55,865 bases of DNA from Candidatus Heimdallarchaeota archaeon (GTDB lineage Archaea; Asgardarchaeota; Heimdallarchaeia; Heimdallarchaeales; Heimdallarchaeaceae), in contig JAEOTE010000146.1 of the NCBI GenBank assembly GCA_016839945.1, forward strand, positions 1 through 55,865. The letters run 5' to 3'. Below the pieces are notes generated by a model. The model had not been told where the DNA came from. It ran no database searches and was given only the letters and a program-made list of their open reading frames with translations. Shown here piece by piece: positions 3,063 to 36,725 of the stretch. The number at the start of each line of letters is the position of its first letter. Position 1 is the stretch's first letter. A program made the translations under genes and the position numbers.

Positions 3063-5075
3063 CTATTTTAGAATTTTAGAGTCACCTGGGATGAAAGGTA
3101 GAAAATCATTAACGGTCAGTGATTCCACTTTATATTTCTCATCTTCTGGGCATTTTTTAAGCAATATTTCTCTTATTTCCTTAGCTAGTTTTCCTTTAGG
3201 AACATCTCCTGGTTTAATTTGAATAGTTATTGAAGTTCGTTCTTCTACACTCTTTAAAGGTCCGCCAATAACTTGTGCATGTTCATCAAAAATCACTATC
3301 CCTACTGCATGGCTTATTTCAACATTTTTTTGATAATTCTTTGTTCCATAAATCATTACGCTTCCTTTTGATAGATACTGACCAGAAGGAGCAGTAAGGC
3401 TTACTTGATCGGGAAGAACACTGTAAACATCACCGACTAATTTCTTTCCCTTCCATATGCTAGAATAATTAAGCGCAAAAGTTGCTATTTCGTTTATACA
3501 ATCTTCTGAAAGATTTGTTTGACCTTCCTTTACAACAACATAGGGAGCACCATGTACATCAGCATGAAAGAATAAATCGTTATCATCTAGATAGGTTTTC
3601 AGGATTCTTTCATTTGTTTTTGCATCAGTTCCACCAATCACTATATGATCTTTACAAATAAACCAGTGAAACTTTTCATACCATCTTTTTGTTCTTTTTA
3701 TAACCATAGGTTTTGTTTCTATTTCCTTTTCAATCTCTTCTTTTTTCATACTAGCTTCTTCGATTTGCTTCTTTGATCTACCTATAGCTGCTTCTGCACC
3801 AGGCACCTTTCTTCTAGCTTTCTTCGATTTTTCATAGAAGCTATTAGCACTTTCTACTAATGGAAGCGTAAAATCTAGTTCAATTTTTTCTTCTTCACTT
3901 TTTTCATCAAAAAGTTTGAGAACTATTAACTTATTTTTAGGCTTTATTTCTTCAAAAAGCATAGCAGAAGCAATACCTTTTTCTTTTCCTATTACCAGCT
4001 TTTCTTCAATTTCTGTCCAAGAAACACCATTTCTTCTAGTCTTTAAGATAGTAGTAAGAAGTTCATCTACATCAATAAAATTAGCATAGAGTAAATCTCC
4101 TTTCTTCTTTTCTTTTTCTTCTTGATCTATTAATGATTTAAGATGCTTTTCTTGATTATTGAGTATCTTTTGAAATTTTGTTAATTTACCAGTTGTCTCA
4201 GTTTTATCTTCTGTAAATTCAGGCTCTTCTTCTTGTGTTGAGAAAAAGTCATCTAGCTCATCATTAAATGAATCTACTTCATTAACCTCCAAATCATCAT
4301 ACCTATTCATAGCAATTGGAGTAATATCTACAATCTCTTCCTCGTCTGTATATTTGTGATATACATAAGCCTTGTTAGTTATCGTTTTCTGTAAATTAGT
4401 AAGATTCTCAAAAATCTTATCTTTTTCGGCATCTTGAAGTTCTTCTACAGTTTTTGTAGAGACTTCTGCTTTGAGAAGTATATCTTTTGAATAAAGAGGA
4501 CCTAGACCCATTATCTCATTTAGAAAATTAACCACTTTACCACTTGATTTTGAAAGTTTATCAAAGAAAATTTCTTTGGTTATTGATGCAATGTTTAACT
4601 CGGAGGAGGGTGGAAAATTGAATTCTCTTCCTGGATGAACATCTCTATCTCTCATTCTCCTATAAACATAAGCTAGAATTATCTTGTTGTTAGGTCCAAC
4701 AAGTATAATATTCCCCTCACCAAATAGTTCAAGAATTAATTTGTAAAATCCATCTTTGTATGAAATCTCAAAAACAACAACTCTATCTAAATCTTTCTGA
4801 TAGAAGTCTTTTACTGGTAAATCCCTTATGTGTTTTCGCAAAGAAAGAATTTTGTTGTTTGGTGTTGTAGGTTTTTTACGAAAATACTTAGTGACATGAA
4901 ATCTTTTCCCAAGCTCAAAAACCATTTCAGAAGGACTTTCTGTTGTCTTACGAAACCTTAATATAACTCGATTTTTCCCGATTGAATAAATATTGTTAAT
5001 CCAGCTATTAACAATCTGCGGGCGTAATTCTGCTACTAAAGCAGCAATATCTAAACTGGATAATGACGTCTTCAT
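3063..5075 (-). CDS. rqcH: Ribosome rescue factor RqcH (NFACT/NEMF homolog)
   Basis: SSLDIAALVAEL, DRVV, ELFGEGNIIL, WYEKFHWF, GGTDAKTNE, FFHADVHGAP, APSGQYLSKGS. Confidence 0.95.
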   Translation of the reverse strand: MKTSLSSLDIAALVAELRPQIVNSWINNIYSIGKNRVILRFRKTTESPSEMVFELGKRFHVTKYFRKKPTTPNNKILSLRKHIRDLPVKDFYQKDLDRVVVFEISYKDGFYKLILELFGEGNIILVGPNNKIILAYVYRRMRDRDVHPGREFNFPPSSELNIASITKEIFFDKLSKSSGKVVNFLNEIMGLGPLYSKDILLKAEVSTKTVEELQDAEKDKIFENLTNLQKTITNKAYVYHKYTDEEEIVDITPIAMNRYDDLEVNEVDSFNDELDDFFSTQEEEPEFTEDKTETTGKLTKFQKILNNQEKHLKSLIDQEEKEKKKGDLLYANFIDVDELLTTILKTRRNGVSWTEIEEKLVIGKEKGIASAMLFEEIKPKNKLIVLKLFDEKSEEEKIELDFTLPLVESANSFYEKSKKARRKVPGAEAAIGRSKKQIEEASMKKEEIEKEIETKPMVIKRTKRWYEKFHWFICKDHIVIGGTDAKTNERILKTYLDDNDLFFHADVHGAPYVVVKEGQTNLSEDCINEIATFALNYSSIWKGKKLVGDVYSVLPDQVSLTAPSGQYLSKGSVMIYGTKNYQKNVEISHAVGIVIFDEHAQVIGGPLKSVEERTSITIQIKPGDVPKGKLAKEIREILLKKCPEDEKYKVESLTVNDFLPFIPGDSKILK

Positions 5076-5079
5076 GTAT

Positions 5080-5091
5080 ATCACTGGTGAT
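5080..5091. promoter_or_regulatory. Near-palindromic bidirectional RBS-like element (ATCACTGGTGAT)
   Basis: GGTGA lies 6 nt before TTG 5097 on +. AGTGA lies 5 nt before ATG 5075 on -. Confidence 0.4.
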
Positions 5092-13254: not shown

Positions 13255-14262
13255 ATGTCTCTTAGAGGATTCATAGTAAGAAGAACCATTTATATTATTC
13301 CTGTTATGCTTGGTATTACATTAATGAACTTCACCCTTATTAACATCAGTCCAGGTGATCCTGTTATTGTAAGAATAGGATTGATTCAGTGTAATACGGT
13401 TGAATGTTACAATAATGCGTATAACAAAGAAGCAATAGAAATGGGTCTGTTAAGCAAAGATCTATACACAGTTCCTTGGTTTGAAAGATACGTAGAGTTT
13501 GTTAACAATTTACTACATTTTGACTTTGGAAGAAGCTGGTATTATGAACAAGCTGGGCAAGGAATGCCAATATCGCAGATAATAGGGGAGAGAGCAGTAT
13601 ATACAATAACTCTTAACATATTATCGTTTATTTTCTCGTTATTACTTGCTACAGCTATAGGAGTTGTATCAGCAACAAGACAAAACTCTTTCTGGGACAG
13701 AAGTCTAACAGTAGCGATGTTACTTGGATATTCGATGCCTCTTTTCTGGCTAGCCAAGTTGCTAATGTTAATGTCCTATTATATGTTCAAATTCACAGGA
13801 GTAGCAAATAAGGATGCATTTGAAACACCTCTAATTATTAATGGTAGTTTCTACAAATATCTTATCCTACCAACGCTTGCATTGACATTAGGAGGGTTAG
13901 TATTTATGGCAAGATTAGTAAGATCACAATTGCTAGAAATACTGCGTCAAGATTATGTGGTTACTGCAAAAGCTAAAGGATTAGATAGAAGAGCAGTTAT
14001 TTACAAACATGCATTCAGAAACGGATTGTTACCAATTGTAACAATTATAGGAAACTCACTACCAGGATTACTAGCTGGTTCAGTAATGGTTGAACGAGTC
14101 TTCGGGTGGCCAGGTTTGGGAACAGTCTTCTTGGAAGGCGCACTTTTCAGAGACTACCCTCTTATGATGGCTACGAACACGATCTTCCCATTCTTATTCT
14201 TAGTGGCGCGTCTGCTTACGGACATCACGTATGTGTTTATAGACCCAAGAATCAAATATTAA
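13255..14262 (+). CDS. oppB: Oligopeptide/dipeptide ABC permease
   Basis: PGDP, DFGRS, EAA loop (QDYVVTAKAKGL), KHAFRN, VERVFGWPGLG, RDYP, DPRI. Confidence 0.93.
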   Translation: MSLRGFIVRRTIYIIPVMLGITLMNFTLINISPGDPVIVRIGLIQCNTVECYNNAYNKEAIEMGLLSKDLYTVPWFERYVEFVNNLLHFDFGRSWYYEQAGQGMPISQIIGERAVYTITLNILSFIFSLLLATAIGVVSATRQNSFWDRSLTVAMLLGYSMPLFWLAKLLMLMSYYMFKFTGVANKDAFETPLIINGSFYKYLILPTLALTLGGLVFMARLVRSQLLEILRQDYVVTAKAKGLDRRAVIYKHAFRNGLLPIVTIIGNSLPGLLAGSVMVERVFGWPGLGTVFLEGALFRDYPLMMATNTIFPFLFLVARLLTDITYVFIDPRIKY

Positions 14263-14274
14263 TGAGGTATTTAC

Positions 14275-15351
14275 ATGGCAACAATAGATAAAGAAGAATT
14301 ACCTGTCAAAGAAGAATTTCTTCTGGACGAGAAAACACTTAGAGAAATTGAAACAATGAAAGGTGCCGGACAATGGAGTATTGTCTGGCGTCGTATCAAG
14401 AAGGATAAAATGGGTATGTTAGGATTCTATATCGTTTTATTCCTTATCGCAATGGCTTTTGTTTCTTGGCTCTTACTCTCTTTCGACAATTGGTTAACCA
14501 CACAGGGATATATGTATGGTAATCCACACCCTGGTTTTGAAGGAAGTCGTAATAATCTATATATTGAGCTATGGTTCCCAGGAATGGACATAGAAAATCC
14601 CATAATTCTGTTCCAACACCCAAGATATATGGACCATGCAAACGCTAAATTACCACCATCATTCCAGTACCCATTTGGTACAGATGCAAATGGTCAAGAC
14701 ATGTTATCCAGAGTATTCTTTGGTGCAACAGTTTCCTTAGCTCTAGGATTTATTGGCCAAATGACTACGGTGATTATAGGTACGGTTTTAGGGTCAATTG
14801 CGGGTTTCTATGGTGGAATTGTTGATGACATACTGCAAAGAGTTATTGAATTACTCTATTCAATGCCTGGTTTTATTTTGATGATCTTCATCATCGTATT
14901 GTTTGAGGATGTCAATATACCGGGTGGGAAGTACGCGGTTGTAGTAATATTCTTCTCCCTGATAGGCTGGGGAGGTACTGCGCTTATCGTTCGTTCAAAC
15001 TTCTTCTCACTGAAAGAACAAGATTTCGTAGAAGCGGAACGGGCGCTGGGGGCGAGTGATATGAGGATTATATTTAGACATATCCTACCGAACTCGCTAG
15101 CTCCAATTATCATTATAGTAACACTGGGAATTGCTACAACAATCTTTACATTCGCAGCACTTGCATTCTTTGGTTTCGGTGACCCAACTGCAATATCTTG
15201 GGGCGATGATCTGAATCGGTGGCAAGACTTTTTAATCGAGTACCCTTGGATGCCGATGTTTCCTGCGTTGTTTATTTTCTTTACCGTACTAGGCTTTAAC
15301 CTACTCGGAGACTCACTTAGAGATGCTTTAGATCCAAGATTGAAGGATTAA
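14275..15351 (+). CDS. oppC: Oligopeptide/dipeptide ABC permease
   Basis: PFGTDANGQDMLSR, DFVEAERALGAS, RHILPN, FNLLGDSLRDALDP. Confidence 0.93.
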   Translation: MATIDKEELPVKEEFLLDEKTLREIETMKGAGQWSIVWRRIKKDKMGMLGFYIVLFLIAMAFVSWLLLSFDNWLTTQGYMYGNPHPGFEGSRNNLYIELWFPGMDIENPIILFQHPRYMDHANAKLPPSFQYPFGTDANGQDMLSRVFFGATVSLALGFIGQMTTVIIGTVLGSIAGFYGGIVDDILQRVIELLYSMPGFILMIFIIVLFEDVNIPGGKYAVVVIFFSLIGWGGTALIVRSNFFSLKEQDFVEAERALGASDMRIIFRHILPNSLAPIIIIVTLGIATTIFTFAALAFFGFGDPTAISWGDDLNRWQDFLIEYPWMPMFPALFIFFTVLGFNLLGDSLRDALDPRLKD

Positions 15352-15394
15352 ACCTTCTCTCAAACTCTTTTTTTTATTGTTTTATTCTCTTCTA

Positions 15395-15553
15395 TTGATA
15401 GTAGATATTTTCACTCCATACCACAATTGTTTACTTATTGGTTTTGGAGAGCTGTTACTAACATCATTGATTATCGTTTTTATTATACTTGGAATTAAAT
15501 ATGGGGAGAAACTGGTTCTGTATCTCAGAGAGAAACGTTCACTTTCACTATAA
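15395..15553 (+). CDS. Possible small single-TM protein (52 aa; alternative TTG at 15377)
   Basis: Hand-translated: LIVDIFTPYHNCLLIGFGELLLTSLIIVFIILGIKYGEKLVLYLREKRSLSL*. Below the ORF-track size cutoff. Confidence 0.3.
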   Translation: MIVDIFTPYHNCLLIGFGELLLTSLIIVFIILGIKYGEKLVLYLREKRSLSL

Positions 15554-15771
15554 TTTTGTTATTACTGGTTTTTTCCCTCCTTTTTTAATTAAATTACTTA
15601 TTAGATATTGATAAGCTATCTACTGCTTATCATAGTCTATATTCTTAGGCTATCCAAAATCGGGTGTAGACCATTCTAAGGGAGGGAGTTACACCAGATT
15701 CTTGTTCGATTTTCTTCCTTTAAAAACTTTTGAGTATTTAAAGCAATTTAGCTATTATATTATTGGGAAAG

Positions 15772-16545
15772 ATGACCACTGTCATTAAGAAACTTGAATT
15801 AGAACCACTTCAAAAAAAATACCAAGAATCAGAGCATCCTTTCGTTCTTACCAATGGGAAACTCAAACAAATAGACTTTCGAAAAGAAACCACACACTTC
15901 TTTCGATTTCTTGAGATAACTTCCAATCTTCTTTGGAAAGATATTCCTTCTGCAGTTTTTACAGAAGCGTTTCTTCACTATCAACGGTTGTTTGAACTTA
16001 TGATTGAAAGTCACTTAAATGACAAATATTTCAACAATGAAGATCTATTAGCCTATTTTTTGGCATTATTAGATCATCATGTTACATTACAAGGAAAGGA
16101 GATACAGGAAAAAACCTTGCAAAGAATCTTACGATTCTGGGGGTTTGATAAGAAGTACGATCTGTTCTATCGAAAAATTTCCTATGCTAAACAAATCCTT
16201 GAAAAATCCGAGTTGTTGAAACACAATTGTGATACAAGTCACACTGAATTATTCTTAAAAGTTGAACAACTCATCTCATACTTTAGAGAAAAAGTCTCTG
16301 AAGACAATGATTTTCTGGACTTAATCAGAGATGACGTGTTGAGGTTAGTAGAAAAGAGAATTATCCCATTTGCGAGCTTAAGAGATGCAGCATTAACAAT
16401 GATCGTGGCATTTTTCCCACAACATATAGAAGTTCCAGCAATGAAACTATACTTGCTTCTTAATGCAAGATCTGATTTCCAGATTGATTTAACACTCCTA
16501 CAAAAACGAGTAAAGAGATATCAATCAAAAATTAGCCTCAAATGA
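15772..16545 (+). CDS. Hypothetical protein, possibly divergent TFB/cyclin fold
   Basis: All-helical. F.EITSNL...IPSAVFTEAF..Y.R and IRDDVLRLV...SLRDAALTMI recall the two TFIIB cyclin repeats; no Zn ribbon. Confidence 0.55.
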   Translation: MTTVIKKLELEPLQKKYQESEHPFVLTNGKLKQIDFRKETTHFFRFLEITSNLLWKDIPSAVFTEAFLHYQRLFELMIESHLNDKYFNNEDLLAYFLALLDHHVTLQGKEIQEKTLQRILRFWGFDKKYDLFYRKISYAKQILEKSELLKHNCDTSHTELFLKVEQLISYFREKVSEDNDFLDLIRDDVLRLVEKRIIPFASLRDAALTMIVAFFPQHIEVPAMKLYLLLNARSDFQIDLTLLQKRVKRYQSKISLK

Positions 16546-16726
16546 AGAATTTTGTTGCTTTTTCTTCCTATCAAGTTTGCATCCATCAAGCATATATTTT
16601 AGATGGAATAATTATATAGGCTACTCTGATTCTTGGGATAGTGAGAGTAAGATAAATACATTTATAAAAGTGTAACAAGAGGAAAAAGTAAGCGTGTCCA
16701 GAAAAAATTAATGTAAGTGGTATGAG

Positions 16727-17788
16727 ATGAATAGACCACCAGAAGATATTCTATTAGAAATTAATGGATTAAGAACTTATTTTTTTACAGAAGAAGGTGT
16801 AGTAAAAGCAATTGAAAGCATCGATTTGGTTGTTTACAAATCAGAAACTTTGGGGCTCGTAGGTGAATCTGGTTCTGGAAAATCAGTTACAGCATTATCC
16901 ATCTTAGGAATCGTTCCTGATCCTCCAGGTAAAATCCTTCAAGGTGAAGTAATATTCCACGGGCAAGATCTTCGCAAACTTAGTGATTCTGATATGCGTA
17001 AAATCCGTGGAAATCAAATTGCTATGATATTTCAGGATCCAATGACATCATTGAATCCAGTTTTTACAGTTGGTGATCAAATTAGTGAAGCTATTATGCT
17101 TCATCAAAAAGTCACAAAGAAGGAAGCTCGAGAGAAATCCATCAAAATTATGAGCTTAGTTGGTATACCTTCAGCTGATGAAAGAGTTGATAATTATCCG
17201 TTTGAATTCAGCGGTGGGATGAGACAAAGAGTTATGATTGCAATGGCATTAAGTTGTAATCCTGAACTTCTAATAGCAGATGAACCATCAACATCCCTAG
17301 ACGTAACTATTCAAGCACAGATTCTAGAACTTCTTAAAGCGACTTCAGAAGAGTTTGATATGAGTATCATTTTGATTACTCATGATATGGGTGTAATTGC
17401 AGAGATGTGTGATCGTGTTGCAGTTATGTATGCAGGTTACATCTGTGAATCTGGAGACATTATGATTATATTCAAATCCCCCTATCACCCTTATACGCGA
17501 GGTTTATTAGGAGCTATTCCTCGACCTGATGCTGAGCGTGAGGATTTGACGATTATTAGAGGAGCTATTCCAAATCTCATTAATCCTCCTTCTGCTTGTA
17601 GATTTCATCCTCGTTGTGATTATTGGATGGAAGGCCTTTGTGAATCTGTTTTACCAGAAGTTCTAGAAATAGAATCTGGTCACAAGGTTCGATGTCATAT
17701 ATATTCAGATGCAGGGAAAGCGTGGATGCAGAAACATGGTGAAGCAAGAGAGATTGGAAAAATACCAAAAAGTGCAGTAGGTAAGTGA
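16727..17788 (+). CDS. oppD: Oligopeptide ABC ATPase
   Basis: GESGSGKS, IFQDPMTSLNP, FSGGMRQR, DEP, HPYT, CRFHPRC..C..C C-terminal domain. Confidence 0.95.
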   Translation: MNRPPEDILLEINGLRTYFFTEEGVVKAIESIDLVVYKSETLGLVGESGSGKSVTALSILGIVPDPPGKILQGEVIFHGQDLRKLSDSDMRKIRGNQIAMIFQDPMTSLNPVFTVGDQISEAIMLHQKVTKKEAREKSIKIMSLVGIPSADERVDNYPFEFSGGMRQRVMIAMALSCNPELLIADEPSTSLDVTIQAQILELLKATSEEFDMSIILITHDMGVIAEMCDRVAVMYAGYICESGDIMIIFKSPYHPYTRGLLGAIPRPDAEREDLTIIRGAIPNLINPPSACRFHPRCDYWMEGLCESVLPEVLEIESGHKVRCHIYSDAGKAWMQKHGEAREIGKIPKSAVGK

Positions 17789-19020
17789 AAAAGATGAGTG
17801 GCAGTTCAGAATCATTTTTTGATAAAATAGCAGCTAAACAAGAAGAAAAAGGTATAGCAGCAAGTCGTATTAGAACAAAAGAAATGAAAGAGGACGTTGT
17901 TCTAGAGGTTAACAATCTTAGAAAGTTTTTCGACATTCCAATTCCTTTTGAAACAACATGGTTTATGATAGCATTCGTTGGAGCTATCGTGGTTTTCGCA
18001 TTTCGACAATTAATAGGTTTAATTCTAATAGCTGCAATTATTGTTTTATATTTCGCATTACCTTATATTCCACCATTTAATAAACGACCTAAAGTTGCTC
18101 ATCTAAAAGCAGTTGATGGCATAGATTTGCAGATCAAGAAAGGAAAAATTGTTGGCCTTGTTGGAGAATCAGGATGTGGAAAAAGCACTGCTGCAAAAAC
18201 CATTATTCGATTACTTGAGCCTACTGCTGGTTCAGTTTATTTCAAAGGAATTGATATTAATCGTTTAACAATGGATGAAATGAAAGAAATCAGAAGGCAT
18301 CTTCAAATTGTATTTCAGGATCCTTACGCTTCGCTAAATCCTCGAGCTACGGCGCATGATATCATAGCAGAGCCTTTTGACATACACGGGGTTGCTTCAG
18401 GAGATGAAGCTAGCTATAAAGTATTAACTCTTCTAAAAGATGTAGGACTTGCACCACATCATGCTTATCGATATCCTCACGAGTTTAGTGGTGGACAACG
18501 ACAAAGATTAGGGATTGCAAGAGCTTTAGCATTAGAACCGGATTTCATCGTTATGGACGAACCAGTTTCAAATCTTGATGTTTCAGTTCGAGCTGCAATT
18601 ATCCAATTGATTCTAGAGCTACAAAATAAAATGGGTCTCACTTACCTCTTTATTGCTCATGACCTTTCTTTGGTAAAAATCCTTTGTGACGAAGTCAACG
18701 TTATGTATCTTGGAAAAATAATGGAAGCTGGAACAAGCGATGAGATTTTTGAATCAATGATGCATCCTTACACTAAAGCATTAATTTCAGCAGTACCAAT
18801 AGCAGATCCAACTAAAAGGTCAAAGAAAATATTCTTAACAGGAGATATTCCAACACCAATCAATCCACCACCAGGATGCAAATTTCAAACAAGATGCCCT
18901 CTTGTATCTGATGTCTGTCGTGTTGAGGACCCTCCAGCTAGATGGTATACAGCCTCTCATGTGGCTTACTGTCACAATATAGAAGGTGGAGAAGAAAATC
19001 CAGATTTTTTTGCTAAATAA
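17785..19020 (+). CDS. oppF: Oligopeptide ABC ATPase with N-terminal two-TM insertion
   Basis: GESGCGKS, FQDPYASLNP, FSGGQRQR, HPYT, GCKFQTRCP; a hydrophobic insertion lies before KAVDG. Confidence 0.92.
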   Translation: MKKMSGSSESFFDKIAAKQEEKGIAASRIRTKEMKEDVVLEVNNLRKFFDIPIPFETTWFMIAFVGAIVVFAFRQLIGLILIAAIIVLYFALPYIPPFNKRPKVAHLKAVDGIDLQIKKGKIVGLVGESGCGKSTAAKTIIRLLEPTAGSVYFKGIDINRLTMDEMKEIRRHLQIVFQDPYASLNPRATAHDIIAEPFDIHGVASGDEASYKVLTLLKDVGLAPHHAYRYPHEFSGGQRQRLGIARALALEPDFIVMDEPVSNLDVSVRAAIIQLILELQNKMGLTYLFIAHDLSLVKILCDEVNVMYLGKIMEAGTSDEIFESMMHPYTKALISAVPIADPTKRSKKIFLTGDIPTPINPPPGCKFQTRCPLVSDVCRVEDPPARWYTASHVAYCHNIEGGEENPDFFAK

Positions 19021-19050
19021 TCTTTTTCTTTTTATAACTTCTTATTTTTT
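19021..19050 (+). terminator. T-rich terminator after oppF
   Basis: TCTTTTTCTTTTTATAACTTCTTATTTTTT. Confidence 0.55.
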
Positions 19051-19139
19051 CATTGCCAGAATGTAAGAATATTTATTAGTCATACAATAGAGTATAATCT
19101 GTTATAAGTAAAAATTTAGCTTTCTATGAGGAGAGTTAT

Positions 19140-19892
19140 ATGAGTAAAGTAAACCTTGAATCCGCTAAGAATAATATAGAAAGAGTATCATCGAATTTGA
19201 ATGAGCTACAACAGCTTCTTTTGAGTAAGAAAGAAGAGATAAGTAACAAAGTCAAAGACTTTAATGATTTGTTATCTAATTTCTTTAAACATGCTGATGA
19301 AAAGAATCAAGCGATTAGTCAAGAAGAAGAAAGAAAATCCAATAACACATCTAAACTAAATCAATTGAATCAACAATTACAAGAATTAACTCATCAAAAA
19401 GACATTTTGTCATCCGAAATTTCTAACAAACAGAGGGATATTGAACAGTTATCCAATGTTACTCTAGAGAGAGAAAAGACAAATACAGAACTCACATTAC
19501 AAGTTGATTCAAACACAGAAAGAATTTCTGATTTTAAAAGAAAAATTGAGGAATTAGATGTTTTAAGTCAAGCTACACGAGATGAAACTAAAGAAGAAAT
19601 GAGAAGAAGAGAAATTAAGAATGCAGAACTCAATGAGCAATATAATAGATTAATTTCTCGATCTAGAGCCTTGATATATCTTGTGAAGAATGATATTGTG
19701 AATCTACCTGAAATTCAGGTTTTAAGAAGCTTAAATGTCCCTGGTATTGACTCCGAATTAAACCTTAGAAAGACTTCAGGAGTATCAGAAAATTTGATTA
19801 GAAACGTTTTGGTTGATTTGGATCGTAGAGAGATAATTTCTTTTGACCCTCATACAGGACGTATCCAAATTCTAACTAACATAGATATATAG
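19140..19892 (+). CDS. Coiled-coil protein with C-terminal winged helix (paralog A)
   Basis: About 175 aa of heptads, then PEIQVL...LRKTSGVSENLIRNVLVDLDRREIISFD...IQI. Confidence 0.8.
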   Translation: MSKVNLESAKNNIERVSSNLNELQQLLLSKKEEISNKVKDFNDLLSNFFKHADEKNQAISQEEERKSNNTSKLNQLNQQLQELTHQKDILSSEISNKQRDIEQLSNVTLEREKTNTELTLQVDSNTERISDFKRKIEELDVLSQATRDETKEEMRRREIKNAELNEQYNRLISRSRALIYLVKNDIVNLPEIQVLRSLNVPGIDSELNLRKTSGVSENLIRNVLVDLDRREIISFDPHTGRIQILTNIDI

Positions 19893-19901
19893 GTGATGAT
19901 G

Positions 19902-20657
19902 ATGTCAGAAGAAGAAAGAATGATTGGAATCCTTGAAGATATTAAACGTGATATAGAAGAGTTATCATCTCGTAAATCAAATGTCATTTCAACCACAAAT
20001 ATGACTATTGAATCTACTACAGATGATGTAAGAGCAATTCCAGCTTATATTGAATCATTAAAACGAATTCTAGATGAGATTCAGCAAGCCAATAAAGAGC
20101 TCGAAGAGAAAATAATGCAAACTCAACAAGCTGTTGAAACGGTACAAACCGAAATTGAAATTCAACAATCAAATAAAAGCGACCTTAATGAAGCTGAAAT
20201 TAAAAAACGAGAATATAAGGAGAATTTAGAGAGACAAATTACAGATTTACAGGAGAAAAAAACTACCCTTGAAACAGAACTCGAATCTTTAAGTGCTACA
20301 ACTCAGCATAAGGAGACTGAATATAATCAGCTGCAAGGAAGTGCCAGAAGCGATATAGAAAATATGGACCAGAAAATTAGGGAAGCAGAAATGAGATTGC
20401 AGCAAATAAAAGAGGATAACAAACTAATTGTTTATCTAATGGAGGCAGGATTATTAGATGTACCAGAAGCAGAAATTGTGTCAGTAATTGCCTCTTATCC
20501 AAATGGATTAAAATTGGATGAAATCAAAGAAAAGGTAAGTATGCCTCCCGTAAGAGTACAACCCACTATTAACACTTTATTGGAAAAAGTAGTAGAACAC
20601 GATAGTTATTCAGATTCCTACAAAATACTCGAGTCTATCAAAAAAGAGTTTGTCTAA
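19902..20657 (+). CDS. Coiled-coil protein with C-terminal winged helix (paralog B)
   Basis: About 175 aa of heptads, then PEAEIV...GLKLDEIKEKVSMPPVRVQPTINTLLEKVVEHD...YKI. The GGTGA RBS overlaps the upstream stop; the start is one of 19893-19902. Confidence 0.8.
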   Translation: MSEEERMIGILEDIKRDIEELSSRKSNVISTTNMTIESTTDDVRAIPAYIESLKRILDEIQQANKELEEKIMQTQQAVETVQTEIEIQQSNKSDLNEAEIKKREYKENLERQITDLQEKKTTLETELESLSATTQHKETEYNQLQGSARSDIENMDQKIREAEMRLQQIKEDNKLIVYLMEAGLLDVPEAEIVSVIASYPNGLKLDEIKEKVSMPPVRVQPTINTLLEKVVEHDSYSDSYKILESIKKEFV

Positions 20658-20812: not shown

Positions 20813-22174
<1,362 letters not shown>

Positions 22175-22221
22175 AATATAATCAATTTCGATGGAAATGA
22201 GTCCTATCGTTCTCTCTTTTT

Positions 22222-25200
22222 TTACTTATTTTTCGTATCAGTAGGTTCAATAATCATACCTTCATTCTTCTGAGCATCAATTCTAACAACTAAAGGTTTC
22301 TTTGTTCGTACGTGTCTAACAAATTCCAAATCAGTAATTACATCTTGCTTTTCAAGCCATTCCCAATTAATGAATTGCTCTTCAATATTGTGTTTGATAT
22401 GTAAGTATCCAATATTAGAAGTGACTATGTTGTGGAAGAAATGACTACCTTGAGAGAAGTCTATTTGGAAGCCTGGAAGTCCAGCTTCAATAATAATCTT
22501 TGCACTACTTATATTATTCCACTTCGCAGGAATGCCTAGAAAACGATCTGATGTTCCCCACCTTCCAAAACCAACCAGAATAGATGGCCTCCTTTCATTA
22601 AAAAGTGTAGAGTTTAGTTGGTCTATTTCTTCAACCATTTTCTCTGTTTCAGTTTTGTCAAAATTATCTGGTTTTACATATATTATGTCACTAATATCTT
22701 TTCGAATTAGGTTTCCAGAAACTTGAGTAGAATATGCCAAAACTTGTTTTATATCAACTGGATCTATATCTTCAACCATCAATAATTCTTGATACAAATA
22801 AGGTCTGATTTGTAATATAACAAACTTGTTCTTTTCACCTTTATTTTGTTTAAAATTTCCAGCAAACTCAATTTCTATTGAACTTCCCATTGCTCTTTCT
22901 CCTATAGAAAGGATTCTTGAGATAATTTTCGCCAAAGGAAAAGTTTCTAATTTAAGTTGATTACTAAAAGTAATAATAGGAGAACCCTCATCAAAATACC
23001 CCATATTCAAGCTTTGTGAAGTGAAATCATAAGTATCAGCAATCGGAGTTAAGGTTTTATCTTTTATAGCATCCCCAAGATCATATTTTTGTGTAAAAGG
23101 ATCATCTTCGAAGATATCAAATGCTCTATAATTCAAATCAATAGCGTAGAAGCTCTTCTGACTTTGATCAAGCAACTCGTCTGGAGTTGAATAATAATTA
23201 AGTTCAGGGTATTTAGGGCAAAATCTCACAGATATTCCTCCATCAAGAATTGTTTTTCCTAAACCTAAAGCTACATGTGAAATTCTATCTTCTGGTTTCA
23301 TATACGAACCAAATGGATAGAAATTATAAGATGCAGCAGTACCTGAGAAATCTGGATAAAAACGTTCGTTATGTTCTCTTCCAACTACTTCTTGGATAAC
23401 CACTGCCATTTTTGATTCTTCAACTGTCTGACTTATTGTTTCTGCATATGTTCTTGCAAGCTCGAGGAATGGAGAAACGAGTACCAGCTTAATTGCAGTG
23501 CAAAGTTGTTCTAATCTATCTTTAATATTGAGACTGTTGTTAGGAATCATATAAGTATTAAAAATGCCTGCAAAAGGCTGGTATGCTGAATCTTCAAGAA
23601 GACTAGATGAACGAACTGCTAAAGGTTTGTTTAAATCACGCAAAAGGAATTCTAAATCATTTCGAATACTCTTTGATAATTTTGCTTTTACGAATTTTTC
23701 TTTAATTTCTTGATCAGATTTTCTTAATAAAGCGAATTCATAGAGGTTATTTTCTTCCATGAATTTGTCAAATTCGTCAGTCCCTATTACCACAGTCTTT
23801 GGAATCTCAAGAGAAACATTTTCAAATTCATCTTCTATCATAAAGGAATTTAAAAGGAACATTAAGAATGCAAGACCTCGTCCTTTTCCACCTAGTGATC
23901 CAGGTCTTAATCTGATAAAAAGAATCTCCGGGTGGTAGTTTTCTCGTGAAAAATCATTAACAATACCTCGAGTTTTTTCTATCACAATTTCTTTAAGTGA
24001 TTTTAACAAGAAATCTCTTAATTCCTCTTGTGTAAACTCTGACACTTTACGTGGTTTTAGTTTTCGAGCAACATCAAACTCTCCTCTCGCACCCAACCAA
24101 TTTGAAAAATGATCACTTTGTCCATGATATATAATTGAATCAATTGGTATTTCGGATAATTGTTCATAGAAACTTATGACATCTTTAGCTTTGCCAAGTG
24201 GTTTACCACTTCTATCTTTAAAGATAAAATCCCCAAAACCGACGCTTTCCAATAACCACTTACGGAAATCCCACATCATACCATGTGATCTTTTATGAAC
24301 AAAATGACAACCTAATTCTTCTGATTTGTCTCTATTTTCCTCTTTACTTGATTGTAAGACAATGGGAAGAGTTGGTTTCTCTTCTTTAATTTTTTCAACA
24401 AAAGAAAAACCTGCATGTTTATCCAAGGATCCCTTTTTGGGGAATTCTATATCAGAAATTATTCCCATAACGTTCTGTTTATATTTTTCATAATATGCTA
24501 AAGCTTCTTCATATGTTTCAGCTAAGAGAATTTTAGGTCTGATTCTCATTTTTAGCAAATCTTGAAAATCATTTGTCCCCTCAGTAATTAGTCTATGAGT
24601 TTGACGCATTAATTCTCCATATAACTCCGGTAGAAGTAGAGAATAAAAACGAATTGAGTCATCAACGAAAATAAAAACTCTAACTTGACCTTTATCGGTA
24701 TCAAAATCAGCATTCAACCTATCTTCAAGATGTTTAATGATAGCCACAAAAATCTTCGAGTCTCCATTCCATGTAAAAATTCTATCTATTCCATCACGTT
24801 TATCATGATCAGGTAAGTAGTTTATTTCTACAACATTGTTCAGTAAGAGAATAACAGGTATTTCTCTTATTTCTTTTACTTTTTTTCCAAATGAAAAAGC
24901 ATCAATATCACCTAACCGTCGCATAGTAATAACAAGATCAAAATCACCCTCCTTTAGAGCTTCAAGGGCTTCCTCTGCAGAAGAAACTCTAGTAATTCTT
25001 GGGAGAGTTCGAAGGTTTAAATTTCTAAATTCCTCATATATCTGATCAGAAAGACGTCCATCTTCTTCTATCATAAAACTGTCATAGATACTTGAAACAA
25101 GAAGAACATTACTCATTCTTTTAGACATTAATTCATGGAAAACTTTGTATTTAGGCTTATATTCAAAATAGAATTTTTCTTCATCTATATCGAGTGTCAT

Positions 25201-25245
25201 GAAACTACTTCCTTGTTCTAGATACCCTATTTTCTCAACCTCCAT
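22222..25245 (-). CDS. Receiver-domain + PPDK/PEP-synthase-type ATP-grasp + phospho-His domain protein
   Basis: REC motifs (VDDS, ISD, QSS, HK); GGKGRGL, PLAVRSSSLLED, FAG, MAVVIQEVVG, ALGLG, EIEFA, LQIRP; C-terminal GRWG and SQGSHFFHN. Confidence 0.88.
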   Translation of the reverse strand: MEVEKIGYLEQGSSFMTLDIDEEKFYFEYKPKYKVFHELMSKRMSNVLLVSSIYDSFMIEEDGRLSDQIYEEFRNLNLRTLPRITRVSSAEEALEALKEGDFDLVITMRRLGDIDAFSFGKKVKEIREIPVILLLNNVVEINYLPDHDKRDGIDRIFTWNGDSKIFVAIIKHLEDRLNADFDTDKGQVRVFIFVDDSIRFYSLLLPELYGELMRQTHRLITEGTNDFQDLLKMRIRPKILLAETYEEALAYYEKYKQNVMGIISDIEFPKKGSLDKHAGFSFVEKIKEEKPTLPIVLQSSKEENRDKSEELGCHFVHKRSHGMMWDFRKWLLESVGFGDFIFKDRSGKPLGKAKDVISFYEQLSEIPIDSIIYHGQSDHFSNWLGARGEFDVARKLKPRKVSEFTQEELRDFLLKSLKEIVIEKTRGIVNDFSRENYHPEILFIRLRPGSLGGKGRGLAFLMFLLNSFMIEDEFENVSLEIPKTVVIGTDEFDKFMEENNLYEFALLRKSDQEIKEKFVKAKLSKSIRNDLEFLLRDLNKPLAVRSSSLLEDSAYQPFAGIFNTYMIPNNSLNIKDRLEQLCTAIKLVLVSPFLELARTYAETISQTVEESKMAVVIQEVVGREHNERFYPDFSGTAASYNFYPFGSYMKPEDRISHVALGLGKTILDGGISVRFCPKYPELNYYSTPDELLDQSQKSFYAIDLNYRAFDIFEDDPFTQKYDLGDAIKDKTLTPIADTYDFTSQSLNMGYFDEGSPIITFSNQLKLETFPLAKIISRILSIGERAMGSSIEIEFAGNFKQNKGEKNKFVILQIRPYLYQELLMVEDIDPVDIKQVLAYSTQVSGNLIRKDISDIIYVKPDNFDKTETEKMVEEIDQLNSTLFNERRPSILVGFGRWGTSDRFLGIPAKWNNISSAKIIIEAGLPGFQIDFSQGSHFFHNIVTSNIGYLHIKHNIEEQFINWEWLEKQDVITDLEFVRHVRTKKPLVVRIDAQKNEGMIIEPTDTKNK

Positions 25246-25422
25246 TCAAGATTAATAGTTTTTTGTAGTTGATACATTAAGAAAAAGCACATTTTTGTAC
25301 AATTTTCATTCAAAAAGAACACTTGGTTAGCTCAAAAAAACTTTTAATGGTCTGTGCGTTCATATATTAGCAGAAAGTATCATAACTTTGTACGGATTAA
25401 TAAGACAAAGGTCGAGTTAATA

Positions 25423-26082
25423 ATGAGTCCAAGAGAAAATCATAGTGATGAGGCAACATTAGATGGTATAATGTACCCTGGATTCACTGATTATAGACCT
25501 TTGTCTGAGAGGGATGCTCTAATTATTGAGATGTATGATGAAGGTCTTTCTACGTATGAAATAGCTGAAGCACTAGAAATAAACAGACATACTATTTCAA
25601 AGGTTCTAAAAGAAAACGAAGTAGAAACTCGAACCATTGCTGATTATCATAAACTGAAACATGATGATATAACTGAGTTATTTAAGCAAGGAAAAACAAA
25701 ACACGAAATAGCAAAGGATTTAGGTTTTACATACTATACAGTTAGAAAAGTTCTAGAAGACAAAGGACTTGTCCTTAACAAGAAAGACAGAGAAACTATG
25801 TCAATAGCTAGATATGTACAGATGAAGAACAAAGGATATGACAATGAATCCATAGCATCTTTTCTTAATATTTCCAGGAAACAGCTAAACAAACTTATAC
25901 GAAACTGTGGAGTAAATGTTACCGCCGTAAGGAACAAAACGAGTGAAATTGAAAACCTATCTGATATAATTCTATCTCGATTAAAAGGCATGAAAATAGC
26001 TAATATCTCACTAAAATATAGGATTGATCTTGTTTTATTAAGACAGATTCTCTATGATTTTGGTTTGAGTAAATCAAAGTAA
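25423..26082 (+). CDS. Multi-HTH DNA-binding protein
   Basis: About four HTH units (GLSTYEIAEAL; GKTKHEIAKDLG; GYDNESIASFL; GMKIANISLKY). Confidence 0.8.
   Translation: MSPRENHSDEATLDGIMYPGFTDYRPLSERDALIIEMYDEGLSTYEIAEALEINRHTISKVLKENEVETRTIADYHKLKHDDITELFKQGKTKHEIAKDLGFTYYTVRKVLEDKGLVLNKKDRETMSIARYVQMKNKGYDNESIASFLNISRKQLNKLIRNCGVNVTAVRNKTSEIENLSDIILSRLKGMKIANISLKYRIDLVLLRQILYDFGLSKSK

Positions 26083-33590: not shown

Positions 33591-36725
<3,135 letters not shown>

Follow-up and report, generated by a model that had tools for sequence, protein, structure and literature searches.

Response regulators that combine a receiver (REC) with a pyruvate phosphate dikinase (PPDK) module have been catalogued by Galperin et al. 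(2018, J Bacteriol 200:e00681-17, PMC5847659), and the architecture listed there is identical to that of the 1007-residue protein described here; it is a catalogue entry alone, which assigns no function, mentions no linkage to glutamate dehydrogenase (GDH) and does not describe the pseudo-receiver or the end domain. A protein that is similar in concept, when compared at the superfamily level, is VadK (Rv1127c) of Mycobacterium tuberculosis, a barrel-less PPDK derivative that autophosphorylates on a histidine and interacts with metabolic enzymes, so that flux is tuned (PMC13400623). Unlike our protein, VadK has a canonical His domain and no receivers, and it is tied to the methylcitrate cycle and not to GDH. 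Rifampin phosphotransferase (RPH; PDB 5hv1, 5hv6, 5fbs) provides the top sequence and Foldseek match for the ATP-grasp domain, and its swivel His domain is also C-terminal; however, the 1007-residue protein has no rifampin-binding domain, begins with two receivers and a DUF5752-like module, and ends in a domain without the GGxTSH motif and the PF00391 signal. PPDK and PEP synthase have the PPDK_N ATP-grasp in common with it, and the PPDK carrier domain 2fm4 is the top structural match of its end domain, but their PEP/pyruvate TIM barrel is missing. PleD-type regulators, chains of which are among the Foldseek matches of our full model, likewise place tandem receiver-like domains ahead of an enzymatic output; here the order is reversed, with the pseudo-receiver first, and the output is an ATP-grasp and His module in place of GGDEF.

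The gene lies in a window of 55,865 nucleotides, the whole stretch of DNA that was analysed, from a Candidatus Heimdallarchaeota archaeon (contig JAEOTE010000146.1). It converges on gdhA, with 47 bp (22175-22221) between the two stops, and the gdhA product matches NADP-GDH PRK09414 (E 1e-223). No tRNA and no Rfam feature was found in the window. The features of the locus are as follows.

22222..25245, reverse strand: whole gene for the pseudo-receiver, receiver, small module, PPDK_N ATP-grasp and His domain protein (P0001; open reading frame of 1007 aa)
24766..25116, reverse strand: pseudo-receiver, residues ~44-160 (weak Response_reg matches; (beta-alpha)5 pattern in the model)
24271..24684, reverse strand: complete receiver, residues ~188-325 (Pfam PF00072, E 4e-9; conservation; model)
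23911..24240, reverse strand: small conserved module, residues 336-445, GFGDFxF ... NHFSxWL (conserved columns; weak DUF5752 similarity)
22798..23910, reverse strand: PPDK/PEP-synthase-type ATP-grasp nucleotide-binding domain, residues 446-816 (Pfam PPDK_N, E 5e-32; Foldseek; conservation)
22237..22758, reverse strand: C-terminal domain, residues 830-1003, candidate phospho-His carrier (model; structural matches; H935 conservation)
20819..22174, forward strand: gdhA, NADP-type hexameric glutamate dehydrogenase (P0002, 451 aa), convergent with the 1007-aa gene

A preliminary description of this DNA, made from the letters alone, had proposed a five-part architecture without a PEP/pyruvate barrel, and both Pfam and the AlphaFold model (mean pLDDT 86.5) agree with it. 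Pfam assigns PPDK_N to residues 450-816 (PF01326, E 5e-32) and Response_reg to residues 230-311 (PF00072, E 4e-9), and gives no match in the protein to PEP-utilizers (PF00391) or to the PEP/pyruvate TIM barrel (PF02896). The chain stops at residue 1007, immediately past the 175-residue end domain. The motifs named in that description are all present: FDLVITM (102-108), VDDS (194-197), ISD (263-265), QSS (297-299), HK (317-318), FSNWL (380-384) and SQGSHFF (931-937). A genuine PEP synthase or PPDK is ruled out by the missing barrel and by the true PPDK encoded elsewhere in the genome (TIGR01828, 1239 bits), which has no BLAST similarity to the 1007-residue protein.

The model shows two (beta-alpha)5 receiver-like domains in the N-terminal part. 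In the first, for which the weaker receiver match spans residues 77-134, SS takes the place of the acidic pair and Met108 occupies the acceptor position, where none of 321 family members has Asp, 220 have Met and 45 have Thr. The second carries the full CheY-like set (D195/D196, D265, S299 and K318), kept in 93-98% of the same members: D265, encoded at 24451-24453, in 306, Ser or Thr at 299 in 314, and K318 in 313. Between its beta1 and beta2 the model inserts a helix that is either additional or elongated (H198-220, H226-235). The small module that follows is modelled as a beta-hairpin with helices and has conserved columns at G336, F337, G338, F342 and W383. It matches DUF5752 (PF19027) weakly, at E 3.5e-4 here and 1e-5 in the homologue P0140, and a literature search on DUF5752 returned nothing relevant.

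The ATP-grasp domain is intact and contains the conserved motifs GGK454, VR545SS..ED and E791/E793 ... Q812/R814. Its Foldseek matches are RPH 5hv6 (E 5e-11), PEPS 2ols and PPDK 1kbl, and a profile comparison matches it to RPH at E 2e-13. R545 is present in all 321 members and K454, E793 and Q812 in 320 each, so that the ATP-grasp catalytic-type residues, together with His935 of the end domain (317 of 321; codon 22441-22443), are kept in at least 98% of the family. Conservation of this degree over the 321 members is far beyond chance. The conservation of a receiver Asp and a C-terminal His, as anticipated in the preliminary description, is therefore seen across the family.

The end domain is marked by GRWGTS (894-899), E920 and SQGSH935FF, and its model (pLDDT 89.1) is an alpha/beta structure with a swivelling beta/beta/alpha-type fold. 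In two structure searches every one of the best matches is a phosphohistidine swivel domain, namely PPDK 383-512, RPH 756-867, the C-domain of pyruvate kinase (PK) and enzyme I. With VIA-align the best are the PPDK phosphoryl carrier domains 2fm4 (Z 7.4) and 1vbg (Z 7.0), alongside RPH 756-867 (Z 6.2-6.5) and the PK C-domain (Z 6.5-7.0); the swivel matches run from Z 5.4 to 7.4 over 103-119 aligned residues, and a Z of about 7 falls in the range that the tool gives as typical for the best matches of unrelated models. The order of secondary structure is collinear with canonical swivel domains, and His935, in its GSH motif, stands at the start of the helix after the third main strand, the place of TSH in those domains. 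Pfam finds no similarity of the end domain to PF00391, and hhalign against 14 canonical swivel domains returned a probability of 0.3%, aligning the final 'v.idG..G' hairpin alone; a profile search of PDB sequences yielded spurious matches only (E > 0.09). Foldseek found nothing at E <= 0.001, its weak matches being PPDK, aconitase and chaperonin apical domains, all of swivelling beta/beta/alpha fold, and a search of the ESM Atlas recovered fragments of the same REC-PPDK_N family only. The swivel-like fold suggested earlier thus has support from structure only, at Z ~7. In the best reading, which as a whole we put at a little under an even chance, the model would represent a strongly diverged swivel domain and a candidate phospho-His carrier.

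Glutamate dehydrogenase stands at the junction of carbon and nitrogen metabolism, and to our knowledge little is understood of how the common hexameric NADP-type enzyme is controlled after translation in prokaryotes. The preliminary description had mentioned such genes next to gdh in bacteria, and the linkage is conserved across phyla: in 25 of 30 Heimdall loci gdhA is the direct neighbour, and 46 of 80 loci from elsewhere, which represent about 20 phyla, have a GDH gene at a distance of 6 kb or less, with four orientations among them. The Heimdall genera g1 and g2 have the pair in convergent and g11 in divergent arrangement, and a second GDH class (~30% identity) also adjoins family genes. 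All-against-all clustering of 2087 flanking ORFs left gdh as the sole recurrent neighbour; other conserved neighbours were sought in the same clustering, which yielded gdh and antisense shadow ORFs only. The linkage is missing in about one third of well-covered loci: in 24 loci whose fetched flanks extend at least 1.5 kb to either side, neither class of GDH gene is present in those flanks. In two closed Heimdall genomes gdh lies ~115 kb from the family gene. Within the Asgard genomes, GdhA is present in nearly every carrier of the family, and it also occurs without the family protein in many genomes (30 of 43 in family f10, for example), which implies that GDH does not need the 1007-residue protein. 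Since its relatives adjoin gdh in many bacterial and archaeal phyla, the protein probably controls GDH and does not itself make PEP. Literature searches on gdhA with a REC/PEP-synthase neighbour in Bacteroides and on GDH phosphohistidine returned nothing relevant.

The REC-PPDK_N family is present in at least 597 species genomes, mostly bacterial; its carriers come from about 20 bacterial phyla, from Thermoplasmatota and from almost all of the sampled Heimdallarchaeia. Full-length homologues share 32-94% identity, and more than 150 clusters of ~1000 aa are collinear end to end with our protein. In both trees, that of the family and that of GdhA, the Heimdall clade is nested within bacterial sequences, and the two trees agree on several sister pairs that cross phyla, in keeping with the bacterial affinity that had been supposed for the gene pair. 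A paralogue of ~885 aa retains the ATP-grasp and a GRWGTS / SLGTHFF end domain and has no recognisable receivers; its N-terminal 300 residues have no Pfam match, and it adjoins gdhA in 4 of 9 loci.

We propose, tentatively and at somewhat less than an even chance, that the protein is a phosphotransfer enzyme of the PEP-utilising dikinase type which phosphorylates itself, is gated by its receiver and acts on the adjacent GDH or together with it. The domains, their conserved residues, the similarity in fold, the linkage to gdh and the distribution are observed; from them we infer that His935 is autophosphorylated, that GDH is the target and what part each receiver plays. The ATP-grasp domain would bind Mg-ATP, and the mobile C-terminal domain would present His935 and become phosphorylated, as in PPDK, PEP synthase, rifampin phosphotransferase and VadK. 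Since the protein has neither a PEP/pyruvate barrel nor another known substrate domain, its phosphoryl group, or its phosphorylated state as such, would be used in trans, most likely to control GdhA through covalent phosphorylation or phosphorylation-dependent binding. The second receiver would serve as the input, D265 being phosphorylated by an ordinary cellular histidine kinase, and the first, acceptor-less receiver may be a dimerisation or adaptor domain. Counting against this proposal, the characterised enzymes known to us that pair an ATP-grasp with a swivel domain, VadK excepted, all phosphorylate small molecules. The family is very widespread and genetically tied to GDH, and it is predicted to join two-component input to a dikinase-type phospho-His engine. 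Should it indeed control GDH, a textbook enzyme would prove to be regulated on a new principle, PPDK machinery would provide a second example, next to VadK, of conversion into a regulator, and the archaeal lineage closest to eukaryotes would have fixed a bacterial signalling module early on. A stronger form, which we regard as unlikely but worth stating, is a GHKL-independent protein kinase in which the ATP-grasp loads a remodelled swivel His that then phosphorylates GDH or the protein's own receiver Asp; if true, many anaerobic bacteria would share a hitherto unknown covalent switch, gated by a receiver, at the carbon/nitrogen junction, and Heimdallarchaeia would have acquired it.

The nearest sequence and structure relatives (RPH, PigC/RedH, PEP synthase and HpeI) all phosphorylate small molecules, and the 110-residue module is strongly conserved and unexplained; both would suit a small-molecule dikinase or phosphotransferase, in which the His935 phosphate would end up on a metabolite from the glutamate / 2-oxoglutarate / ammonium junction or on a different hydroxyl compound, bound by the DUF5752-like module or in an inter-domain cleft. 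Adjacency to gdh would then reflect a pathway common to both enzymes. However, no further pathway genes are conserved nearby, nothing in the protein resembles a known substrate domain, be it the rifampin-binding domain, the PEP/pyruvate barrel or another, and the tight pairing with two different GDH classes is a better fit to a protein partner, so we consider this rather unlikely, with perhaps one chance in four. We give still less weight to the possibility that gdh adjacency reflects hitch-hiking, or that the ATP-grasp is a non-catalytic sensor of adenylate charge which regulates GDH by binding alone. The loci without linkage favour such an account, but the near-invariance of the ATP-grasp residues and His935 counts against it, as does a linkage that survives when orientation, GDH class, paralogue or phylum changes; we judge it very unlikely.

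The preliminary description had placed the receiver Asp, or a partner protein, as phosphate acceptor in a His-Asp relay without a GHKL kinase. In this self-contained scheme the ATP-grasp would load His935, which would pass its phosphate to Asp265 of its own or a partner receiver, and the receiver would signal to GDH. Conservation of both residues in one polypeptide is consistent with it, as is the lack of a conserved histidine kinase gene in the neighbourhood and of a fused histidine kinase domain in the long family members examined. It is not borne out by the family: the receiver-less paralogue, with the same ATP-grasp and His core beside gdhA, argues against an obligatory His-to-Asp relay, and 13 of the 15 members without D265 still have His935. 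In addition, the genome encodes five canonical receivers and up to seven HATPase_c proteins over the Pfam cut-off, some of them probably histidine kinases, and we know of no case in which a swivel His hands its phosphate to a receiver Asp. A relay is thus neither needed nor favoured, and we hold it improbable.

Relatives of the protein are annotated as 'PEP/pyruvate-binding domain-containing protein'. Fusions to histidine kinases were considered for the long homologues (1130-1640 aa) and rejected, their N-terminal extensions being without such domains; Pfam gave no match to HisKA/DHp and HATPase_c (GHKL) in the 1007-residue protein or in the longer homologues examined. One long homologue is a tandem of two PPDK_N cores.

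The family gene and gdhA are convergent, and their stop codons lie 47 bp apart.

22222-25245, minus strand: family gene, an ORF encoding 1007 residues (P0001)
20819-22174, plus strand: gdhA, matching NADP-specific GDH PRK09414 (E 1e-223)

The window, with a G+C content of 32%, belongs to a Heimdall-type Asgard archaeon; the closest homologues are annotated as Candidatus Heimdallarchaeota or Heimdallarchaeaceae. The segment that precedes gdhA in the same orientation (13255-20657, plus strand) encodes an Opp/Dpp-type peptide ABC transporter (two permeases and two ATPases with oligo_HPY) and, after it, two 250-aa coiled-coil ORFs; a peptide transporter in this position fits a catabolic, peptide-fed role for the GDH. 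Divergently from the family gene, 108 bp from its start, runs a gene for a 242-aa helix-turn-helix protein (25354-26082, plus strand) that matches HTH_23, GerE and, weakly, TnsD. This gene is retained in 10 close-relative loci, and its product could be a local regulator. Elsewhere in the window are a full LacZ-type GH2 beta-galactosidase of 1040 aa (33591-36713, minus strand) and a 673-aa NFACT-family protein (3063-5084, minus strand).

In P0001, Pfam assigns residues 450-816 to a PPDK_N ATP-grasp (E 5e-32) and residues 230-311 to a receiver (E 4e-9), and detects neither a PEP-utilizers domain nor a PEP/pyruvate barrel; weaker receiver matches span 77-141. A full-length AlphaFold model, for which 54 full-length homologues served as input (mean pLDDT 86.5, pTM 0.77), has five parts.

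Residues ~44-160: first receiver-like domain
Residues ~188-325: second receiver, its beta1 followed by a long or additional helix
Residues 336-445: beta-hairpin and helical module
Residues 446-816: ATP-grasp
Residues 830-1003: alpha/beta end domain

The 336-445 module has weak similarity to DUF5752 (E 3.5e-4 in P0001, 1e-5 in the homologue P0140). The preliminary description had proposed this five-part architecture, which the Pfam matches and the model bear out, and the lack of a PEP/pyruvate TIM-barrel, with which the Pfam search agrees. The possibility that P0001 is a genuine PEP synthase or PPDK was rejected: it lacks the barrel, and a true PPDK is encoded on another contig (TIGR01828, 1239 bits) and has no BLAST similarity to P0001. 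Some bacterial relatives are far longer than P0001; P0261 (1639 aa) carries two PPDK_N cores in a single chain, and P0140 (1557 aa) and P0199 (1524 aa) have N-terminal extensions of ~550 residues without Pfam matches.

By sequence the end domain is an orphan, with no match in Pfam at E 10 or in a PDB profile search, and a probability of 0.3% in hhalign comparison with an alignment of 14 canonical swivel domains encoded by Heimdall PPDK/PEPS-like genes. Modelled by itself it reached a pLDDT of 89.1; Foldseek returned no significant match to this model. When 48,161 chains were searched exhaustively with VIA-align, the phosphoryl carrier domain of PPDK came out on top (2fm4; Z 7.4, 119 residues, rmsd 3.8); next were maize PPDK 385-511 (Z 7.0), then rifampin phosphotransferase 756-867 and the PEP-utilizer-like C-domain of pyruvate kinase (both Z 6.5), and enzyme I at Z 5.4-5.8. 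Repeat inspection gave the same ranking: seven phosphohistidine-type domains come first, and PA, LdcA and chaperonin apical domains, which also have a swivelling beta/beta/alpha fold, rank below them. A Z of about 7 would not by itself prove kinship with swivel domains. Because a single superfamily tops the list, the domain directly follows a PPDK_N ATP-grasp, and its elements are collinear with those of swivel domains (hairpin, helix, strand, loop, strand, Ser-His loop, strand and final hairpin, with the Ser-His at a helix start and the final hairpin reading 'v.idG..G.i'), we interpret the modelled end domain as a swivel domain that has been strongly remodelled and in which His935 would occupy the position of the catalytic His. 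Structural comparison, not sequence, supports the swivel-like fold suggested earlier.

In an alignment of 321 family members, the acceptor position of the first receiver is never Asp (0/321; Met in 220, Thr in 45) and its acidic pair is replaced by SS, AS or ST; judged from the alignment, this domain is a pseudo-receiver across the whole family. The second receiver retains E/D195 (320/321), D196 (299), D265 (306), S/T299 (314) and K318 (313). Within the GGK, VRSS..ED and E.E...Q.R motifs of the ATP-grasp, K454, E793 and Q812 are each conserved in 320 members, R545 in all 321 and R814 in 308. In the end domain R895 is present in 318, E920 in 319, S931 in 315 and His935 in 317, so the refuting test named in the preliminary description, non-conservation of the His or the receiver Asp in homologues, does not count against it.

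The family is large, with 4567 representative clusters (E <= 1e-3) and more than 150 full-length clusters at 32-43% identity, and at least 597 GTDB species genomes carry a relative. Carriers are mostly Bacteroidota, Ignavibacteriota, Desulfobacterales, Acidobacteriota, Gemmatimonadota, Cloacimonadota, Planctomycetota, Zixibacteria and 'Eisenbacteria', and include Thermoplasmatota. Among Asgard archaea, 44 genomes from the Heimdallarchaeia families f1-f6 were sampled and all but one carry a member; in most other families none was detected. When 2087 flanking ORFs from 110 loci (30 Heimdall and 80 other) were clustered, gdh was the sole recurrent neighbour. GdhA is adjacent in 25 of the 30 Heimdall loci; the two genes converge in genera g1 and g2 and diverge, with gdhA at the 5' side, in g11. 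Of the 80 other loci, 46 have a GDH gene no more than 6 kb away and ~35 have one directly adjacent, in all four orientations. The proposed gdh linkage is therefore conserved, and not universal: 24 well-covered loci have a GDH gene of neither class within the flanks fetched, and gdh is ~115 kb from the family gene in two closed Heimdall genomes. A second GDH class (~30% identity; 27-32% to GdhA) lies immediately downstream in seven bacterial loci.

L045: 5095-6252
L053: 7204-8364
L068: 9240-10319
L079: 8294-9517
L081: 9213-10292 and 3004-4119
L090: 9284-10441
L104: 9036-10271

At L081 three GDH-like genes surround a single family gene, and in L068 (1-8934; Ignavibacteriales) the module is apparently doubled in tandem (gdh, family gene, gdh, family gene), with a second end-domain match at 3635-4171. 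In Asgard family f10, GdhA occurs without the family in 30/43 genomes; the P0001 family is therefore an accessory partner, not required for GDH.

Weak matches in other Asgard lineages proved to be a paralogous family of ~885 aa, 28% identical over the module end, ATP-grasp and end domain, which retains GPGRWGTS and SLGTHFF; over the N-terminal 300 residues it shows neither a Pfam match nor a recognisable receiver. Four of nine paralogue loci have an adjacent gdhA; the paralogue loci include L142/L151, L146, L148 and the following.

L141: 1234-3885, plus strand, paralogue gene
L141: 3985-5325, gdh

Since this receiver-less paralogue is also gdhA-linked, the GDH-linked core consists of the ATP-grasp and the His domain, to which the receivers add regulation. 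The paralogue, the retention of His935 in 13 of 15 members lacking D265, and the presence in the genome of five canonical receivers and up to seven proteins with HATPase_c above the Pfam cut-off, some of them probably histidine kinases, together make it less likely that His935 must pass its phosphate to D265. Of the catalytic models, the His-to-Asp relay put forward in the preliminary description is favoured least. The observation made there is confirmed, and its interpretation is partly supported: architecture, conserved residues, swivel-like fold, GDH linkage and bacterial affinity hold.

The nearest functional analogue of P0001 is VadK of M. tuberculosis, a barrel-less PPDK derivative that autophosphorylates on its His and regulates metabolic enzymes by interaction (PMC13400623). 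The reading we favour, tentatively, is that P0001 is a receiver-gated enzyme, autophosphorylating on His935 and controlling GdhA; the main rival reading, a small-molecule phosphotransferase, seems to us less likely. Galperin et al. name Heimdallarchaeota for this architecture and assign no function (PMC5847659), and we found no literature on GDH linkage or any family member.

In a FastTree phylogeny of 90 members the Heimdall sequences group together in a single clade (support 94-100), which under midpoint rooting is nested among bacteria, beside a Bacteroidota/Cloacimonadota clade and then Thermoplasmatota. The tree of linked GdhA proteins gives a similar picture, and both trees contain the cross-phylum sister pairs L058/L078 and L086/L087. 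This fits joint transfer of the two genes and a single early acquisition by Heimdallarchaeia, with the direction hinging on the root position, and agrees with the horizontal transfer suggested earlier. One sequence binned as Anaerolineales (L033, on a 3355-bp contig), with 52% identity, branches as sister to the entire Heimdall clade; either the contig was misbinned or the gene passed between Heimdallarchaeia and Chloroflexota.
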